Positions 21,007 to 54,764 of a DNA stretch of 64,000 bases are shown here, in pieces; position 1 is the first letter of the stretch; the number at the start of each line of letters is the position of its first letter. A program made the translations under genes and the position numbers. The DNA comes from Mobula hypostoma. Lineage: Eukaryota. The notes beneath the pieces are model-generated. The model ran no database searches. It was not told where the DNA came from and saw nothing but the letters and a program-made list of their open reading frames with translations. The stretch lies in assembly GCF_963921235.1 (NCBI RefSeq), contig NC_086108.1, positions 48,920,001 through 48,984,000 on the forward strand, read 5' to 3'.

Positions 21007-21155
21007 ACACTGGAGTCGGAAGGCTTGGATTTAAATGCTGGTCTTCATGGTAACTGGACGCTTGAAAATTCCAAGGCTCAACTCAACCAATTCTTTCAAA
21101 AAGAGAAGATTCAAGCTGACTACAAATATTCTCAAGTGGGACCTGATCACAACAG
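21007..21155 (+). CDS. DHX9: DHX9 exon 6 equivalent, start of dsRBD2
   Basis: tttcctag|ACACTG...AACAG|gtttgc; 149 nt; TLESEGLDLNAGLHGNWTLENSKAQLNQFFQKEKIQADYKYSQVGPDHN(R). Confidence 0.97.
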
Positions 21156-22139: not shown

Positions 22140-24745
22140 ATCGGGTTTAGTATTAGTGATATGTTATGAAGCATATTGCTTTGCGGTAGCAGGACATAGT
22201 AATACATAATATTTAAAAAGTAAATGGTGCAAGAAGAGAGCAAAAAGATGAAAATGAGGTAGTGTACATGGGTTCATTGTCCATTGAGAAATCTGATGGT
22301 GGGGAGGAAGCTGTTCTAAAACATTTGAGTATGTGTCTTCAGGCTCCTAAACTACTTCCTTGGTGTACCAATGAGAAGGGGGCATGTCCTGCTGCATTTG
22401 TGATGATTTGAAGATGTCCTCAATGCTGGGGAGGCTAGTGCCCATGTTAGAGCTGGCTGAGTTTGCAATTTGCTGCATCTTTTTCCGATCCTTTGCAGTT
22501 GCCCCTGCATACTAGGTGGTGATGCAACTAGTTAGAATGCTCTGCACAGATAATTGTGTATAGATAATTGTGATAATCTTTGCTGACATACCAAGTCTCT
22601 TCAAACTCCTAATAAAACATAGCTACTGTCATGCCTTCTTGGTAATTGCATCAATATGTTGGGCCCAGGATAGCTCTTCAGAGATGTTGACACCCAGGAA
22701 CCTAAAACTGCTCACCTGTACCATTGCTGTATCCTCAATGAGAACTGATGTGTGTTTCCTGAACCTCTCCTTCCTGAAGTCTAGAATCAATTCCTTGGTC
22801 GTACTGATGTTGAGAGCAAGGTTGTTGTTGTGACACCACTCAACCAGCTGCTTTATTTCACTCCTATATGCCCTCTCATCACCATCTGAAATTCTGCCAG
22901 CAACGGTTGTGTCATCAACAAATTTATAGCTGGCGCTTGAGCTGTGTCTAGCCACACAGTCATGGGTGTAAATAGAGTAGAGCAGTGGGCTAAGCAGACA
23001 TCTTGGAGGTGCGCTGCTGTTGATTGTCAGCAAAGAGATGTTATTTCCCATCTGCACTGACTGGTCTCTCGATGAGGAAGTCAAGGATCCAGTTACAGAG
23101 GGAGGTACAGAGGCCCAGGTTTTGGAGCTTGTTGATTAGTACTGAGGGTATGATTGTGTTAAACACTGAGCTGTACTCAATAAACAGCAGCCTGATGTAG
23201 GTATTGCATGTGGTCAAGGCTGAGTGAAGAGCCAGTGCGATTGCGTCTGCTGTAGACGTATTTGTGGCAAGTTGATTCTCGCCATGACCAGCCTCTGAAA
23301 ACACTTCAACACAATAGATGTGAGTGCAACTGGGCAATAGTTACTGAGGCAGCTCATCTTGCTCTTCTTGGGCCCTGGTATGATTGTCACTGTTTTGAAG
23401 GAGGCGAGAGCCTCTGACTGCAGCAGTGAGAGATTGAAGTTATCTTTGAACACTCCTCCCAGTTGGTAGTGTGACAAGAATACACATAGATTAAGATGTT
23501 AGCTGTCCTGTGCTGGCCCAGTGGGATCAGCAGTTGGTCTGCCACCTGTCTTCAGGAGAGAGAGAGAGATAAGGAAAACAATGGAGCAGCATTTGGAGAT
23601 GTTAATGAAGGGACGGGAGAGAGTAACGGAAGGAGAGCTGTCAAGATCGGCTCCCCCTTTGAACCCTGAACTGTTTGAAGTGATGGACAGGCGATACCCC
23701 AGCAGGGGAATAAAAAGGGACAGGTTCGCTAAGGCAAGACACACATGACACTCCGAGGTAACGAGACCCTGGAAGCGGTGCATCTCCCACAAGCCGGTGG
23801 GAAGCTTTTGGACGGCTGGTCGCGGGATCAAGCCATAGACGCTCAGGGTGGAAAGGCACAATCGGCGGGAACCTGGTGTGTGTCCACCCTTGCCTGGGTG
23901 CCTGGTTCACCGCAGAGAAACGATCGTATCGGGAAACGGAGGGGTCACGGTCGGTGACCTCAGATGACATCACAAAGGACTCGCCCGAAAGCTGACTGCG
24001 AAGGTCTGTGTGGAAGCCGTTGTGAATATTCATTCGTTTTGCTCTCTCTCTCCTTCCCCCCACACTGTCCATCTCCCACGGCAGCGATTACTGCGAACTG
24101 AACTGAACTAAATTGAACTGAACTTTGCGTCACTTTGAAACTGGTCATTTACCCCTAGACAACGATAGAGCTTGATTGATCCTGTTATCTTAATTCTGTG
24201 TACATGTGTGTTTATCATTGCTGAACTGTTGCATTTATTATCCTTTTGATTAGAGTACTGTGTTGCTTGTTTCTTTAATAAAACTTTCTTAGTTCTAGTA
24301 ATCCAGACTCCAACTGAGTGATCCATTTCTGCTGGTTTGGCAACCCAGTTACGGGGTACGTAACAGCAGGTACAGGTTGACAGTGCTCTTTCAGGTGCAT
24401 TATCAGGGCCTGATGCCCTGTGAGGATTTACCTTCATGAAAGATGTTCTGATGTCTGCCTCTGAGACAAAGATGACAGGGTCACCAGATGATGCAGGGAT
24501 TCACACGTGTGGTTTTATTATCTCTTTCAAAGTGTGCATAAAAGGGGTTGAGCTCATCTGGGGGTGAAGAATTACAGCAATTCATGCTTGTTTGGTTTTT
24601 CCTTGTAGGAAGTAATGGTCTACAAATTCTGCTAGTGCTGATGTGCATCTGATTCCATCTCAGAATTGTTTTCTCGCTCTTAAAATAACCCTCTCTAGGT
24701 TGGACCTGGACTTCTTGCACAGTTCTGGATCACCAGTCTTGAATG
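22140..24745 (-). mobile_element. Rex1/Babar-type LINE, decayed, split by a solo LTR
   Basis: Minus-strand peptides [32 protein letters not shown] and YKFVDDT. Confidence 0.85.
23470..24365 (+). mobile_element. Solo LTR (Gypsy-like)
   Basis: TGTGACA...GTAACA termini; 4-bp flanks gtag/gcag; aataaa near 24277; cleanly interrupts the Rex LINE. Confidence 0.75.
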
Positions 24746-31693: not shown

Positions 31694-32051
31694 TAGATAT
31701 AATAGTAAGATTTAAGAGGTTCTTTAGAAGGTATTTGAACATGCAAGGAATAGAGGGTATGGATCATATGCAGACAGGTAAGATTAGTATAATTCAGCTT
31801 TGTGGTCTGTACTAATTGACCTTCATAGTCAGCACAGACATTGGGTTGCACTATTCTGTGTTCTATTCATTGTATTTTCCTTTAGTAATATCAAATTATT
31901 TTGATAGACCATTTATGACCCCTTTATTTTTCCCTTTCATCCCTAATCATTATTTAATCTCTTGTCACCCAGCCAATCTTTTCTTTCCTTATCTCATCCC
32001 TATTCTTCTTCACCACATCTGCATCTTTAAACGAATTTCTAACTTTTCCAG

Positions 32052-32821
32052 CAACACACATAAAAGTTGCTGGTGAACGCAGCAGGCCAGGCAGCATCTC
32101 TAGAAAGAGGTACAGTTGACGTTTCAGGCCGAGACCCTTTGTCAGGACCAACTGAAAGAAGAGCTAGTAAGAGATTTGAAAGCGGGAGGGGGAGATCCGA
32201 AATGATGGTAGAAGACAGGAGGGGGAGGGATGGAGCCAAGAGCTGGACAGTTGATTGGCAAAAGGGATATGAGAGGATCATGGGACAGGAGGCCTAGGGA
32301 GAAAGAAGGGGAAGGGGGAGCCCAGAGGATGGGCAAGGGGTATGGTTGGAGGAGCAACACCTTATATTCCGTCTTAGTAGCCTCCAACCTGATGGCATGA
32401 ACATTGACCTCAAACTTCTTCTAATGCCCCACCTCCCCCTCGTACCCCATCTGTTATTTATTTATATACACTCATTCTTTTTCTCTCTCTCCTTTTTCTC
32501 CCTCTGTCCCTCTCACTATACCCCTTGCCCATCCTCTGGGCTCCCCCCCCCCTTTTCTTTCTCCATAGGCCTCCTGTCCCATGTTCCTCTCATATCCCTT
32601 TTGCCAGTCCACCGTCCAGCTCTTGGCTCCATTTCGGATCCCCCCCTCCCACTTTCAAATCTCTTACTAGCTCTTCTTTCAGTTAGTCCTGACGAAGGGT
32701 CTCGGCCCGAGACGTCGACTGTACCTCTTCCTAGAGATGCTGCCTGGCCTGCTGCGTTCACCAGCAACTTCTATGTGTGTTGTTTGAAATTCCAGCATCT
32801 GCAGATTTCCTTGTGTTTGCG
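32052..32821 (+). mobile_element. Penelope-like insertion with inverted terminal arms and a 15-bp TSD
   Basis: Arms ~32052-32344 and ~32517-32782 are inverted; spacer encodes EEQHLIFRLSSLQPDGMNID; TSD ttctaacttttccag at 32037-32051 and 32822-32836. Confidence 0.88.
32685..32720 (+). ncRNA. Minimal type I hammerhead ribozyme motif (PLE-borne; GAAA mutated to GAGA)
   Basis: agtc-CTGACGA-a-gggtctcggccc-GAGA-cGTC-gact. Confidence 0.65.
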
Positions 32822-33103
32822 TTCTAACTTTTCCAGTTCTGATAGATGGTCATTGATCTGAAAAGTTAATTATCTCTCTTTCCACAGATGCTTCCTGATC
32901 TGCTGAGTATTTCCAATATTTGCTAACTTAAAATCATTATAAATTAATTGTAAAAGCCTATTGGGGTAAAGTTTCAGAGATATGCTTTAATAAGGTGCAG
33001 TATTTACTGACTTATTAAATTACAGTTTATTATGTGGCAGGTATGTTGATATAAATTTTCTGGATTTAAGTGACAAACCTGTCGCTCCTTTATTTAATTT
33101 CTC

Positions 33104-33252
33104 ATGGGAGTGTGGTGACACCAGAAATCTCTTTTGCAAACATGTGACGTTGCTTAGGCTGCACTAAGCTGTCACATGGTATCCTTCCATTGTAGGAATG
33201 ATGGTTGAAGCAATCATACACAGCTATTGATTTCTGGTGTCACTTTTCCTGT
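33104..33252 (+). promoter_or_regulatory. Predicted multibranch RNA structure covering the branch point and pyrimidine tract of the candidate poison exon
   Basis: gtgacaccagaaatc (33115-33129) is the exact reverse complement of gatttctggtgtcac (33229-33243); nested hairpin at 33141-33178. Confidence 0.6.
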
Positions 33253-33254
33253 AG

Positions 33255-33418
33255 GTATTCTGGGGGACCTAGGGCTGATGGAGATTGGATCTTTATTTTG
33301 AGCTTGGCAGAGAAACATACTGGCATCCAAGAATGGTCGATATTGGGCCTATAAACAGGCTCCTCTGAATCGTGAAGTTGCAGTGCTTGATCTCAGTTGA
33401 CCAAATATAGGATCAGAA
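33255..33418 (+). other. DHX9: Candidate DHX9 poison (PTC/NMD) cassette exon in intron 6
   Basis: cttttcctgtag| acceptor and GAA|gtgagt donor; 164 nt; in-frame TAA at 33352-33354 when joined to exon 6; TE-free context. Confidence 0.65.
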
Positions 33419-34862
33419 GTGAGTTGGACAGATTTAAAAAAAAATGCATGTTACATATCAATGAAAACTGTGTATACCAAGAACTAGATTCCTGGACAGA
33501 GCAATAAATTGAAAATTAATTCTTTAGGCACACAATTTGCTGTATTCTGAACTGCATGACCAAAATTTGTCTGTCAGTGCATATGTATAAAGTATGGAGC
33601 ATTTGAATACTACGACAATACCATCTTTAATTCTTAGATGAGATTTTCTGGAAAGGAAACTAGTTCCAGCACAACAGTTTTCCAATTGAATGCTAATGTG
33701 TAGTTGAAGAAATTAATCACTTAGAAAATGCTATCGCCAATGTTACAAGACCTTTTATTTCATATTAAATGATGAATGTGTTTTTCTAATATTTGTCCCA
33801 CTGACATTTTGTTAAGTGATGGGTTGTAGCAACTTAATTAAGAAATTCTTTATGCAACCTAATTTCTTTATTTGTTTATCATAATTTTATTTTTATCTGC
33901 ATGTTTTAAAGCTTGTATTTATAATTTAAGTCTTTATTAATTAATTATGTGGGTTAATGGACAATTTGTTTCCAAATTATTATGCCTGCAAAGTTTTGAG
34001 CACCAGTAGTAAGAGTACATAGTTCTTTAAAAACCTATGAAACTCTGTGTTTTCGGTTAGTTTTCATTTATTCACTATATCAGTTATCCAGCTTAAAGAA
34101 AACATGGATTCTCAAAAGCTTACAGAGTCTATTAAACACTTCTTCACCCAAATGAAAGCAGCTGCTTTTATTTTACAAGAGACAAATATCAGCATTAATT
34201 TATAACAGCACTAGACTGTGCATTGGACATTTAAAGTGTATTTCAAAATGCAGTTAATAATGTATTTGATTCAAGTTCAAAAAAGCTGATTTTTGTTTTT
34301 ATTTGTGGATCAAATTTCTTTTATGCTATTCAATAATTTTACATTGAATAGTAGCTATGTGCTGAAGTTTCTGCTAATGTTACACACAGCTATCCCCTTA
34401 GTGTTTATAACTGGTTTATCCCTGGATTTTCTTCCTAATTCCGTATTTCAAATTAGAAAGTCACCTTGAGGGCAGTTATGAGCTTAAACATTTCATCTTT
34501 AAATACCTTTTGTGTCAATAGTGCCATCTATTGTGCACTATTCTGAATATTTCTTCTACTTCATTGAAATTGATTTTGCTTGTTTTGGATTTGGTCTGGT
34601 TTACTAAAAGATAGAATACATTGGATGTGTTAAACCTCCCTTAAAAATTTGAGACCATGTCCTTCTCTGAAATGAGAAGTTCAGCAAGAACCTTCCACGT
34701 CTCCTTCATTAAGTCATTAATTTAAAGATATTCAAATCTATTCCCCTTAATCAAAATGTCTTGTAAAAAAAAATCCACAAAATAATGCACATTTTGGTAA
34801 TGCCAATAATGTGTAAGTGCTAAAACGATGGAGTTAATTTGATGTTGTGCATGTCATTGCAG

Positions 34863-34909
34863 GAGTTTTATTGCAGAGATGACTATTCACGTGAGACAGC
34901 TGGGAAGAA
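34863..34909 (+). CDS. DHX9: DHX9 exon 7 equivalent
   Basis: cattgcag|GAGTTT...GAAGAA|gtaagt; 47 nt; SFIAEMTIHVRQLGR. Confidence 0.96.
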
Positions 34910-35109
34910 GTAAGTAGCACTTACATGTAGATGTGAACAGCTTTTGATGGTAAAGTTTGCATGGAACTATTAAAATAAGGGATGATCTGGGCTTGACTGC
35001 TGTATAAATGTTCCAAAAGGACTTGAGCTTCTGTATTAACAAATGAAGCATGTTGAGAATGAAACTGGGAGAATATTGCCACAAGGCAATTTAGAAGTTT
35101 TAATTTCAA

Positions 35110-35385
35110 TGAAGGTGATATGCGGTGCGGAATAAACCCTTGCGGCCTTTTGAGCTGTGCCGCCCAACAAATCCCGATTTGACTCTAGCCTAATCATGGG
35201 ACAACTTAGTGACCATTTAACCTATGAAGCGGTACATCTTTAGACTGTGGGAGGAAACTGGAGCACCCAGAGAAATTCCTCCCACAGTCTAAAGACGTAT
35301 TCTACAGGGAGGACTTACTCCTCACAGATGACGTTAGAATTCAACTCTAACCTCAGGTTCCCCAAGCTGTAATAGCGTTGCGCTA
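35110..35385 (-). mobile_element. V-SINE-like element with an internal inversion
   Basis: gactgtgggaggaaactggagcaccc is the reverse complement of the V-domain core. Confidence 0.55.
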
Positions 35386-40429: not shown

Positions 40430-42370
40430 TACTGTTTCTGATAGAATTTTTTGAAAGGGTAACAAAGAAGATTCAAGAGGGCAGGACAGTTGATGTTGTC
40501 TACGTGGATGTTATTTTGCAAGGCCGTTGACAAGGTCTGCTTGGTAGGCTAGTCTGGAATATCCCATTGGATGCTGATTAGCTAGTCAATTCAGATAAAA
40601 ATTTGGCTTAGTGGAAGGAGACACAAAGTGACAGTTGTGCTGTTATTCTGATTGGACACCTGTGGCTAGTGGTGTGCCACAGGGGTTAGTGCTAGGTTCA
40701 CTGTTTGTTATTTATATTAACAATTTGGATAACAATGTTGTTAATATGGTTGTTAATACTGTCCTGAAGAAGGGTCTTGGCCCGAAACGCCATTAAAGGT
40801 CATGGGGAGAAGGGCAGAGAGTGGGGCTGAGGAGGGAAAAAAGGATCAGCCATGATTAAATTGTAGAGCAGACTCGATCGGCCAAAAGGGCTACATCTAC
40901 TCCTATGTCTTATGGGCTTTTGGAAATGTTGACTGTGTCGACCTTTTACTCTTTTCCATAGATGCTTAGTTCCTCCAGCATTTTGTGTGTGTTGCTTTGG
41001 CTCTCCAGCATCTGCAGATTATCTTGTATTTATTAACATGGTTAGCAAGTTTGCAGATGACTCCCAACAGTTGATGGTGTAGTGCACAATGAAGAAGGTT
41101 ATCCAAGATTGCCAGCAGGACCTAGGTGAATTGGGGAAATGTGCCAAGGCATGGCAGGTGGAATTTAATTTGGACATGTGCAAGGTGTTGCATTTTGGCA
41201 AGTTAAACTAAAACAATATGTGCACAGTAAATATTAGGTCTCTGGAGAGTGTTGTAGAATGGAGAGAACTCTGGGTAAAGGTAACAAAATGGAGACATGG
41301 AGATTGCAAACTCTTGAATCTGAAGCAACGAACGATGTGCTGGATGAGGTTAGATGGCATCTATGGAGAGAAACTCCACATGAAGGGCCTCAATCCAAAA
41401 TATTGACTGTATTTCCCTCTACAGAAGCTTCCTGACATGTTGAGTTCCTCAGTATCTTGTTTGTTGCTTGGAGTACGGGAACATAGTTTCCTAAAAGCAG
41501 TTACATGGGTAGACAGTGTGGTGGGAAAAAAAGAGAGAAAGCACTTAGCATTCTTACATTCATCACTGAGTACAGGAATTGGGAAACCACTACGTCATTG
41601 GTGACACCTAGCTTAAGAGTATTGTGCGCAGTTCTAGTCACTCACCTAGAGGAAGGATATTATTAAGCTGGATAGGATGGAGAAAATGTTCACAAGGATG
41701 TTCCCTGGACTGGTGGGCTTAAGTTGTAAGGAGAGACTGCATATGCTGGGACTCTTTTTCTCTCTCTGGAGTATAGAAAGCTGAGGGGTAACCTTGGAAA
41801 GGTACAGAATATCATGAGGGGCATAGTCAAGAGAGAATCTGCAGATGCTGGAAATCCAGGCAATGCACAAAAATGCTGGAGGAACACAGCAGGCCAGACA
41901 GCATCTATAGAAGAAATTACTGTTGACATTTTGGTCTGAGACCCTTCAGCAGGATCCTTTGGCCAGTCCTGCTGAAGGGTCTTGGCCTGAAACGGCGACT
42001 GTATTTTTTTTTCCATAGATGCTGCCTGGCCTGCTGAGTTCCTCCAGCATTTTGTGTGTGATGGGTGGCATGGATAGGGTGGGTGGTCAGCCTATTTCCC
42101 AGGGAAGGGGAGTTTAAAACTAGTGAAACAAGAGTTAAGTAAGAGGAAGAAGATTTAAGCAGGACCTGAGAGGCATCTTTTCATTCAGGTGGTGGTACGG
42201 AGACAGACACAATTACAATGCTGAAAAAATATTTGAGCAAATACATGGAGGAAAAAAGTTAAGACAGATGTGGGTAAACACAGGCCCTTGGGACTAGGTT
42301 AGGTAGCTATTGTGGCCGGTATGGACAAGTTGGCTAAAGTCTCTGTTACCCTGCTGTATAACTCTGTGAC
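40430..42370 (+). mobile_element. CR1 RT/3' fragment carrying several PLE-derived mini insertions
   Basis: CR1-like gtgccacagggg and agcaagtttgcagatgac segments and a 3' tail; inserts at ~40760-41020, ~41290-41470 and 41830-42060. Confidence 0.7.
41830..42060. mobile_element. Palindromic PLE-terminus mini-element
   Basis: Inverted arms ~41865-41954 and ~41966-42058; degenerate TSD atgaggggcatag/atgggtggcatgg. Confidence 0.75.
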
Positions 42371-49951: not shown

Positions 49952-50168
49952 CGTAAGCACAAAATAATCTGCAGATGCTGGGGTCAAAGCAACACTCACA
50001 ACACGCTGGAGGAACTCAGCAGGTCGGGCAGCGTCCGTGGAAAAGATCGGTTGACGTTTCGGGCCGGAAACCTTCAGTCCTGATGAAGGGTTCAGGCCCG
50101 AAATGTTGACCGATCTTTTCCACGAATGCTGCCCGACCTGCTGAGTTCCTCCAGCGTGTTGTGAGCGT
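49952..50168. mobile_element. Palindromic PLE-terminus mini-element with a 13-bp TSD
   Basis: TSD tactgtagaggtt (49939-49951 and 50169-50181); ~85-bp near-perfect inverted arms. Confidence 0.85.
50077..50110 (+). ncRNA. Minimal hammerhead motif with intact core
   Basis: gtc-CTGATGA-a-gggttcaggccc-GAAA-tGTT-gac. Confidence 0.6.
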
Positions 50169-51306
50169 TACTGTAGAGGTTGGTGTTGGGACTGCTTCTT
50201 TTCACATTATACACAGTTTGTCAATGATTTGGATGATGAAATTGATGGCTTTGTGGCTAACTTATGGATGATGCAAAAATAGGTGGAGAACTGGCAACAT
50301 TGAGGAAGCAGAGAGTCTGAAGAAGGACTTAAGACAGATTAGGAGAATGGGTGAAGAAGTGGCAGATGAAATATAGTGTAGAGAGGTGTATGGTCATGCA
50401 CTTTGGTCGAACGAATAAAGGTGTAGACTATTTTTCAAATTGGTGGAAAATTCAGAAATTGGAGGTGCAGGGGAACTTCGGAGTCCTCGTGCACAATTCC
50501 CTGAAGGTTAATTTGCAGGTCGAGTCAGTGGTAAGGAAGGCAAATGCAATGTTAGCATTCATTTTGAATGGATTAGCATGTTAAAGCAAGGATGTAATTA
50601 TGAGATTTTATAAGATGTTGGTCAGACTGCATGGAGTATTTAGCAGTTTTGGGCCACTTATCAAAGAAAGTATGTGCTGGCATTGTAGAGAGTCCAGAGG
50701 AGGTTAATGAGGATGATACTGGGAATGAAAGGGTTAACATATGAGGAGCATTTGATGGCTCTGGGCATGCTGTCACTGGAGCTTAGAAGAATGAAAGGGG
50801 GATCTTATTGAAACCAATTGAATGTTGAAAGTCATAGATGGAGTGGATATGGAGAGGGTGTTTTCTGTATTAAGGTAGTTTAGGGCCAGAGGGCCTGCTT
50901 AGAACTCTGAATGCCCAGGTGTCTGCGAAGTAAATTCTGGGATTTTCTGTCTTTGAAAGTTAGTGATAGTTTTATTACAAGGAGTATCTTTCAATATGGT
51001 GAGCCTTTGAAAGTTAGTAGAATTGTAAGGATATGTGCTTGGGTATTTATTATCATAGTTGTCAACCACACTCACATCCACAACCCCAGGTTATGAGTGT
51101 CCAAATTGACACTAATGTGTACAAACTGTAATATTAAGTTCAAAGTGGAGCTTGTTTGTTATCTACGGACAATCAGTATGCAGGTAAGTAAAACTACGTG
51201 ACTAATTGGGTCAGGGTCAAACCATGCAGTCAGCCCAAAGATCACTATAGACATCAAATATAATGTTTTGTGCTTAGTAAAAATGATGACTTTTATATTT
51301 TTTCAG

Positions 51307-53401: not shown

Positions 53402-54764
53402 CTAGACAATGGGGTGACCCGTTGGGGCACCCTTTGAGAGAAGAGTAGTGCAGTCTGATGTGACCAGAATGAACATTAAATTTCTCTGAATGCTATTGGT
53501 ATCGCTTTACTTTGGAAACTGAAGTAGAAAACCTTCGTTTATTAAAAAAGAACGACGTGTAGCAAAGCAAATATAGCTCCTCCTCATTTAACGAAGGACA
53601 CTTTTGATGGCATCATTTCTGGTTTATCTGCCACCCTCGTGCCTCTCGTTGTCATTCTGGAGACATGCAGTCCTTTCATCCCCTGTCTCTTCATCTCTTC
53701 TACTGTTTGTTCTTTGTCTCTGATCCTGGAGACGTGAATTTCTCAGCTCCTTTGTCTCTTCCTCTCTCCTCCTTCTGTGCCTGTTTTTGTCTTCTGGAGA
53801 CGTGCAGCCCTTTCATCCCCCATCTCTTCAGCTCTTCTGCTGTTTGTTCTTTGTCTCTGATCCTGGAGACGTGCATGCCTCTCCTCCTCTGTCTCTTCTT
53901 CTCTTGTCTTTTTTTGTTCTGACTCTTTGATCCTGGAGTCGTGTGGCCCTGGCCTCATCCGATTCTTGTTCTCTCCTTCTCCTTGCCGCTTCCTGACGAC
54001 GTTTGGCGTCATCTCTTGACCATAATGTCCCCTTCCCTTTCCACATGGCATAATTAGCCATTTTTATCCAAAATGATAGAATCCCTTTTGCCAATCAACT
54101 GTCCAGTTCTTGGCTTCATCCCTCCCCCTCCTGTCTTCTTCTATCATTTTGGATCTCCCCCTCCCCCTCCCACTTTCAAATCTCTTACCATCTCTTCTTT
54201 CAGTTAGTCCTGACAAAGGGTCTCGGTCCGAAACGTTGACTGTACCTCTTCCTAGAGATGCTGCCTGGCCTGCTGCGTTCACCAGCAACTTTGATGTGTG
54301 TTGTGTGATATAGTCACCACTGTCCTTTCACTGCAGCAAAGGGTTTTATGGGTGTCTCGAAGTACATCATTACAATAAGATTTAATTATCTCTTATTGAT
54401 GGGTGGCAGTTAGATCTGTCCCAATCCTGCAGATGCAGATTAGCAGATTGTGACCTTTCGAAATAGAGCTGCCCTGGCCTTTTGCTCTGGTAGGAGTCGC
54501 TGCTGAGGCTGGCTGTGCACATGCATCAGGCTGTCGCGTCCCGATTTCCATGATGGCCGATTGGGTCTCGGGTGAAAGCCAGCCTGTTGATTTTTGGCGA
54601 ATGAGCAATTTTATATGAATATATAACCCTGAACTTTGCCTGCATTCTGTAAGTTAGCGCATTTTAATTCGATTTAGCCAAAAAAAAGTGCCGCTGTAAT
54701 GTACCATTTGTGCTAATTGGAGGTCACAGACAGACAGAGCATGAGAGTTTTAGTAGTATATAGA
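53402..54764 (-). mobile_element. Non-autonomous Helitron with an STPR-like repeat remnant
   Basis: Minus strand: 5' TCTATATACTACTAAAA; 3' hairpin ggtgccccaacgggtcacc followed by CTAG; inserted between A and T with no TSD. Confidence 0.85.
54078..54305 (+). mobile_element. PLE terminal-repeat insertion inside the Helitron
   Basis: Near-identical to the arms at 32.05-32.8 kb; hammerhead-like motif at 54206-54241 (CTGACAA variant). Confidence 0.8.

Follow-up and report, generated by a model that had tools for sequence, protein, structure and literature searches.

A predicted RNA hairpin over the putative 3' splice site of a stop-carrying exon in a vertebrate DHX9 gene

Could the pre-mRNA of an RNA helicase fold so as to hide the splice site of an exon that would end its own reading frame? 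The question is raised by an intron of the DHX9 (RNA helicase A) gene of Mobula hypostoma, where a long perfect inverted repeat lies directly upstream of a stop-carrying exon. The window, by which we mean the whole 64-kb stretch analyzed, is 48920001-48984000 of its contig within a 3.48-Gb assembly, and all positions below count from its first base. The initial annotation had taken the gene for DHX9, and our searches agree: the 44-residue translation of 39228-39359 matches solved DHX9 chains (E = 6e-18), with a weaker match to Drosophila MLE, and the human exon 6/6A junction primer matches as well. The gene lies on the + strand and, judged from its DHX9 matches, is of the vertebrate type. Stop-to-stop open reading frames and a three-frame motif search place three DHX9 exons in the window, at 21007-21155, at 34863-34909 and from 39226. 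The features relevant to splicing are as follows.

21007..21155, + strand: DHX9 coding exon ending ...GPDHNR, phase 2, with final bases AG; equivalent of human exon 6, from its open reading frame and boundaries and a 16-nt match to the human junction primer
33253..33254, + strand: putative poison-exon acceptor AG, from the start of an organism D contig (a weak hint, one run)
33255..33418, + strand: poison-type exon, 164 nt, with stops in each of the three frames, among them an in-frame TAA (33352-33354), from RNA-type contigs in runs X1 and X6
33419..33424, + strand: poison-exon donor GTGAGT, from the contig joint 33418->34863
34863..34909, + strand: constitutive DHX9 exon, 47 nt, SFIAEMTIHVRQLGR, joined in contigs to the poison exon as well as to the upstream one

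Evidence for splicing comes from public contigs aligned to 32900-34950. Runs X1 (organism A) and X6 (organism D) were treated as RNA-type because their contigs carry a GT..AG joint. This joint connects 33418 to 34863, skips 1444 nt and is found in one contig in each of the two runs, which belong to two studies; the donor is therefore used in RNA. The productive junction is also present in X1 and X6, where loose ends of contigs ahead of 34860 carry the last bases of the upstream exon and so join the 3' end of 21007-21155 to 34863. Read from the phase-2 end of that exon, the TAA is in frame and lies 64 nt before the end of the poison exon. This places a premature stop more than 50 nt before the downstream junction, and the 164-nt length shifts the frame as well. 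The exon had been called a poison exon at the outset, a description that the stops in every frame and the donor joined to the next exon in two other organisms uphold; its product would presumably be broken down through nonsense-mediated decay (NMD).

For use of the acceptor at 33253-33254 there is a weak hint, the start of a single contig in a single run. This X6 contig, of depth 69.7, begins at 33253 without a loose end, and an overlapping, intron-containing contig (33043-33282) has a depth of 5.62; starts of this kind hint only weakly at splicing, and depth is a poor guide in contigs. Since AG closes the upstream exon as well as the intron, a contig break two bases before the exon fits competing spliced and unspliced paths. 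The site does not look tightly shut in organism D, as far as so poor a measure can be read, when the depth of the exon contig is set beside the roughly 476-498 of the next exon's contigs. In X1, the contig that holds the exon and the joint continues back through the acceptor, aligns as far as 32900 (at least 355 nt of upstream intron) and runs some 300 letters beyond; its depth is 9.81, and those of the next exon's contigs are 51.7 and 57.9. The RNA behind it has the downstream intron spliced and the upstream intron kept. Such a molecule fits an active donor beside a blocked acceptor; an intronic transcription start would look alike. Taken as an observation in its own right, this organism A contig (32900-33418 joined to 34863-34892) could be a detained-intron-like intermediate or the product of an intronic start.

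Immediately upstream of the exon, the predicted structure comprises the following parts.

33043..33103, + strand: upstream flank of the hairpin, within the alignable block, with a pyrimidine-rich run at about 33076-33103 (the organism D contig alignment starts at 33043)
33104..33110, + strand: 5' strand of a 7-bp extension with three G-U pairs (atgggag), in the minimum free energy (MFE) structure, pair probability 0.44-0.92 by context
33115..33129, + strand: 5' arm of a perfect 15-bp helix, pair probability at least 0.99 in four contexts of 166-1301 nt
33141..33178, + strand: nested hairpin in the multiloop, 8 bp plus 6 bp with a 6-nt loop, in the MFE structure, pair probability at least 0.98
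33229..33243, + strand: 3' arm of the 15-bp helix, holding the motif-based branch-point candidate ttgAt (A33230)
33246..33252, + strand: 3' strand of the G-U extension (ttcctgt), the core of the short pyrimidine tract, in the MFE structure, with the last 26 intron bases paired at 0.92

Bases 33115-33129 are the exact reverse complement of 33229-33243 (15 nt, 100%), with 99 nt between the arms. In the MFE structure, the closing helix consists of these 15 perfect pairs and one G-U pair, 16 in continuous succession, followed by the 7-bp extension. Inside the loop, the nested arms 33141-33148 and 33171-33178 are complementary over 8 nt (100%) and enclose gcttag/ctaagc, and two smaller stems complete the fold. 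The perfect helix, the extension with its G-U pairs, the nested hairpin and the two small stems had all been described in the initial annotation, and every one of them is recovered. Folded in contexts of 166, 451, 901 and 1301 nt, the extension has a mean pair probability of 0.92 in the shortest and 0.44-0.53 in the larger ones. The proposed comparison with dinucleotide shuffles also came out in favor of the structure: the MFE of 33095-33260 (166 nt) is -63.3 kcal/mol, the shuffles have a mean of -39.87 and a standard deviation of 4.11 (z = -5.70), and 0 of 200 were as stable as the real sequence. The antisense strand reaches -52.5 kcal/mol, so that the sense strand is better by 10.8 kcal/mol. 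We infer that the 15-bp helix would form in vivo. Separately, 33068-33075, upstream of the hairpin, perfectly complements the 8 nt of 33238-33245; by pairing with the 3' arm at its outer end, it could compete weakly with the 15-bp helix.

The position of this helix gives it its interest. The motif ttgAt, put forward from the beginning as the best branch-point candidate and as lying within the helix, matches yUnAy; its A33230 is the second base of the 3' arm and stands 24 nt before G33254, and the intervening sequence contains no AG upstream of the one at 33253-33254. Going by the motif, A33230 may be the branch point. In the predicted fold, the helix takes in this motif, the best candidate for a branch point, together with most of the short pyrimidine tract; the AG alone is left free. 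Prediction thus yields what defines a splice-site-occluding hairpin, namely a stable helix that encloses the branch-site motif and the pyrimidine tract. Averaged over the last 26 intron bases (-26..-1), the paired probability is 0.92 at the poison-exon acceptor and 0.55, 0.76 and 0.38 at the constitutive acceptors (n = 3). Over -40..-1 it is 0.75, and random intronic AGs have a mean of 0.56 and a standard deviation of 0.12 (n = 60), with 2 of the 60 reaching 0.75. Counting against occlusion, E7, the constitutive acceptor that follows, is itself predicted to be paired to a fair degree (0.76). That acceptor belongs to the 47-nt exon at 34863-34909, whose pyrimidine tract is broken by purines. 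Double-stranded RNA that includes the pyrimidine tract is known to block U2AF65 (PMC7005744).

Related organisms provide a comparison at shallow depth; the word shares of 0.19-0.94 in nine further organism codes do not count toward it. In organism L (run X18), one contig covers 33043-33435 with five substitutions and no gaps, at 33067, 33092, 33208, 33290 and 33362. One of these (33208, first in a triloop) falls among the 149 bases of the hairpin, two among the 164 of the exon and two among the 61 of the upstream flank; in the flanking intron, represented by four other contigs, 64 of 1237 positions differ (5.2%), plus indels. Set against this flanking rate, the hairpin (1/149) gives a binomial P of 0.003 and the whole block (5/393) a P of 4e-5, and the upstream 61 nt (2/61) are not significantly below flank divergence in this organism (P = 0.38). 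The stem itself is unchanged in organism L. Organism A differs at 15 of 519 positions in 32900-33418 and at 41 of 381 in 34196-34576 (Fisher P = 1.4e-6), 4 of the 15 being listed by position. Organism M shares with L the five listed differences of this block, though it may have others of its own beyond the listed ones, and the two are not independent because nearly all listed differences are common to both. Organism D, over 33043-33282, has 13 substitutions and 7 gap letters, with 33067 alone among the listed positions, and is unalignable upstream of 33043. Its exon carries a 2-nt deletion at 33296 and measures 162 nt. With the listed changes applied, an approximate procedure, an in-frame stop is kept.

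The divergence of the hairpin block is 4-8 times below that of the flanking intron in two lineages. At the level of sequence, and at a shallow depth where flanks differ by 5-11%, this shows that the hairpin is conserved above the intron background and that the hairpin block is under purifying selection. Compensatory changes were not seen; organism L, the sole fully resolved comparison, has no stem change at all and is therefore uninformative on pairing. A point against occlusion is that the organism D differences (13 + 7) and 11 of the 15 in organism A are unplaced, among 98 substitutions and 14 indels beyond the listed ones, and these could break the helix.

How readily would such a hairpin arise by chance or from a repeat? 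By GC-adjusted MFE, the segment at 33081 is 5th of 1596 sliding segments of 166 nt; counted by locus it comes third, after those at about 50000 and 41880. The 64 kb contain six places with perfect inverted repeats of at least 15 bp and a spacer of at most 150 nt (33115, 35237, 41939, 49995-50018, 50036 and 54066), so the background of a real genome is not negligible and lies far above that of random sequence. In the 3.5-Gb genome, the 166-nt hairpin and the surrounding 801 nt each have one match, these counts being lower bounds. The comparison hairpins are high-copy repeats, with 2604 first-look candidates for that at 35237 and 3079 for that at about 50000. On the single genome match for each of the two queries we reject a transposon, MITE or SINE origin of the DHX9 hairpin. 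No Rfam 15 family reaches its gathering score in 32800-33600; five matches lie at E <= 10, the best with 17.6 bits against a gathering score of 45. These scores rule out a snoRNA or a pre-miRNA, and a 15-bp closing helix around a branched 99-nt loop fits neither. Two scans of metagenome contigs for both arms with a variable gap returned 0 matches.

Several other elements of the window deserve record. The most stable fold, at -144.6 kcal/mol per 166 nt, belongs to a near-palindrome in a DHX9 intron at 49988-50172, with 89-nt arms that are 90% complementary and 7 nt apart; among its 3079 first-look candidates, copies are 91-94% identical. The second most stable locus, 41870-42053, has inverted 47-nt arms (91% complementary), and its word content recurs at about 32040-32120 and 32700-32800, which marks it as probably a dispersed repeat. 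About 330 nt 3' of the 47-nt exon, 35237-35300 holds a 20-bp perfect inverted repeat within a high-copy SINE-like repeat, and 54066-54154, in a DHX9 intron, holds a 16-bp perfect inverted repeat with a 57-nt spacer. On the - strand, 22629-23135 is an open frame of 168 aa that by eye resembles a fragment of a LINE-type reverse transcriptase.

The human gene has a poison exon of its own. Human DHX9 exon 6A is an NMD-linked cassette; hnRNPM and SRSF3 repress it, and slow RNAPII favors it (Fidaleo 2015, PMC4741636; Palombo 2020, PMC7072589). It corresponds to transcript NR_033302, is UPF1-sensitive (PMC4741636) and is also given as an NMD or poison exon in PMC8501971. For DHX9 among other genes, inhibition of SMG1 brings the stabilities of PTC and non-PTC isoforms together (PMC13651330). 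The regulators named for exon 6A are hnRNPM, SRSF3, SRSF1, SRSF10, hnRNPK, FUS and RNAPII speed (PMC4741636, PMC7072589). The human exon 6/6A junction primer (PMC7072589, Suppl. Table 2) matches 16 nt at 21140-21155, with its exon-6 part alone matching, and the exon at 33255-33418 therefore lies in the same intron as human exon 6A. Both are stop-carrying cassettes of the same gene and the same intron, but they share no sequence similarity at the other four primer sites: across the window, two exon-6A and two intron-6 primers, together some 80 nt of human sequence, never rise above background, with scores of 10-12. Common descent with human exon 6A and an ancient origin of the element are consequently not supported, and the region is not ultraconserved to human. 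The initial annotation had counted on an orthologous human site, an assumption that these scores render doubtful. The two exons also differ in that the exon 6A passages of PMC4741636 and PMC7072589 report neither RNA structure nor self-regulation, and the word stem 'autoregulat' has 0 occurrences in PMC4741636.

We favor a model, to which we give about an even chance, in which the hairpin is a cis-acting structure that limits inclusion of the poison exon by hiding its branch point and pyrimidine tract. Under this model, a hairpin in the DHX9 pre-mRNA, in the intron after the exon ending GPDHNR, would pair the A33230 motif and nearly the whole pyrimidine tract in its closing helix, and the folded helix would hinder the binding of SF1/U2 snRNP and of U2AF. 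The folded state would give low inclusion of the 164-nt stop-containing exon; were the helix opened or prevented, inclusion would rise and the mRNA would pass to NMD. Candidate openers include a helicase, a competing protein and the elongation rate. If the helix limits the acceptor, as the model has it, the known splice-site-occluding hairpins would gain a further example, located at the poison exon of a dsRNA helicase gene. A close likeness is exon 3 of RELL2 with ADAR2, where pairing of the pyrimidine tract beside a regulated exon hinders recognition of the 3' splice site (PMC7005744). There, however, the partner strand is exonic and GA-rich and the bound dsRBP, ADAR2, is needed (PMC7005744), whereas the DHX9 partner is intronic, about 100 nt upstream, and the predicted helix also covers the branch-point motif.

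Other explanations share part of this evidence. The hairpin could act in the opposite sense, by looping out about 150 nt and bringing the upstream pyrimidine run and branch-like motifs (~33070-33103) to the AG at 33253-33254, so that folding would promote use of the site and hide the AGs within the hairpin. Structures in yeast do shorten the distance from branch point to AG; here, pyrimidines are denser in the run at 33076-33103 than in the tract of the 3' arm, the block still alignable in organism D includes this run, and inclusion in that organism is not negligible. We nonetheless regard looping-out as very improbable, given that the upstream flank is not significantly conserved (2/61, P = 0.38), that its yUnAy motifs stand 6-11 nt from the base of the stem, short for a branch-to-AG distance, and that the organism A contig reads through the acceptor; with DHX9 as the opener, moreover, the loop would be one of positive feedback and not homeostatic. 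What is conserved might instead be linear protein-binding motifs, for example a GU-rich silencer bound by hnRNPM, with the complementarity of the arms incidental. Both arms are GU-rich (gtgtggtgac and ttctggtgtcac), and hnRNPM binds GU-rich elements, is the sole tested factor crosslinked to the human upstream intron 6 and represses exon 6A (PMC7072589). A perfect 15-bp complement with three nested stems and a z of -5.7 would be unexpected from two linear motifs, however, and in organism L conservation of the loop region equals that of the arms, which leaves this explanation quite unlikely.

The structure might also be incidental, a lineage-specific palindromic insertion or a chance inverted repeat beside a cryptic exon, its apparent conservation due to the closeness of the species or to hitch-hiking with exon-definition signals. 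The six inverted repeats of this size in the window would allow it, as would a shallow comparison without covariation and the lack of similarity to the human region at the primer sites. We find it very unlikely all the same, because the element is single-copy, unlike the repeat-derived hairpins tested, diverges 4-8 times less than the flanking intron in two lineages, and sits exactly over the branch point, the tract and the AG.

Occlusion leaves the opener unspecified, and a special case of it names DHX9 itself. DHX9 would bind the helix through its dsRBDs and unwind it, so that high activity would expose the 3' splice site, raise the poison exon and lower the mRNA, a homeostatic arrangement. 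This form we consider rather unlikely. In its favor, the gene that harbors the element encodes the helicase itself, the position is the acceptor of a stop-carrying exon, and the helix offers 16 continuous pairs and 7 more, with a single-stranded exon 3' of it. A helix of this kind with a 3' single strand suits dsRBD binding and 3'-to-5' loading. DHX9 promotes the recruitment of U2 snRNP/SF3B1 at sensitive exons (PMC11826090), and the same circuit has been reported for the plant helicase DRH1, which also has an RGG tail (bioRxiv 10.64898/2026.01.23.701338). Against it, the helix could be the target of any nuclear helicase or dsRBP, and the human papers name other regulators of exon 6A, among them hnRNPM, SRSF3, other SR and hnRNP proteins and slow RNAPII (PMC7072589, PMC4741636). 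The siDHX9 event table of PMC11826090 holds no exon-6A event; it has 7 rows with the merged label NPL//DHX9 at chr1:182.76-182.80 Mb, none of them named exon 6A. As a counterargument this absence is weak, because siRNA knock-down confounds it. By their coordinates, the 7 rows are presumably NPL exons. A full-text literature search returned no report of DHX9 self-regulation through exon 6A.

The plant system is the nearest parallel to such self-sensing. In the 'DEAD' hairpin of DRH1/RH46, an alternative 3' splice site lies at the base of a 20-bp stem; opening the stem shifts splicing to non-coding variants, and the motif is proposed to sense helicase activity in a negative feedback (bioRxiv 10.64898/2026.01.23.701338). 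As predicted, the DHX9 hairpin shares the hallmark of that system, namely that the helicase's own pre-mRNA carries a hairpin whose stem has an unproductive 3' splice site at its foot, and DRH1 has an RGG/RG C-terminus, as DHX9 does. The two differ in several ways: DRH1 is a DEAD-box, DDX5-like protein of land plants, whereas DHX9 is a vertebrate DExH helicase with dsRBDs; the plant motif is a single 20-bp stem-loop, whereas the DHX9 element has a 15+7-bp closing helix around a branched 99-nt loop; DRH1 uses an alternative 3' site and DHX9 a cassette exon; and the plant feedback is experimental, whereas that of DHX9 is hypothetical. A second likeness, to Frezza 2025, is that DHX9 acts at the branch-site step of exon recognition, the step that the hairpin would obstruct (PMC11826090). 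The portions of that paper on its sensitive exons, however, describe no structure there, and DHX9 exon 6A is absent from the events given.

By analogy, then, a helicase-sensing loop is plausible as a mechanism; that the hairpin is in fact a sensor of DHX9 unwinding activity, an animal, DExH-helicase counterpart of the plant DEAD motif, is a tentative reading that we hold to be more doubtful than not by some distance. If it were so, DHX9 would dock through its dsRBDs, melt the helix from its 3' side and free the branch point and the pyrimidine tract, upon which its own pre-mRNA would be committed to the poison exon. The intron-retaining, donor-spliced RNA of organism A would then be a paused intermediate, and the human intron would hold a structurally analogous gate of different sequence. 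Taken as a whole, the interpretation in the initial annotation is partly supported. It had also presented the loop as one not known to have been described; this stands for DHX9, for which our full-text searches gave no such account, and falls for the principle, since the same logic has been described for plant DRH1 (bioRxiv 10.64898/2026.01.23.701338).

DHX9 is the main nuclear helicase resolving double-stranded RNA, and its level matters for tumour cells (PMC7072589, PMC4741636). A helix that hides the poison-exon acceptor would offer a concrete mechanism for DHX9 dosage that can be tested by mutation, and the arms of the helix would be targets for antisense oligonucleotides to raise or lower DHX9. 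The measurement by a helicase of its own activity through RNA structure has so far been reported, in a 2026 preprint, for a plant DEAD-box helicase alone. Should DHX9 prove to open the hairpin in its own pre-mRNA, this would be the first animal case.
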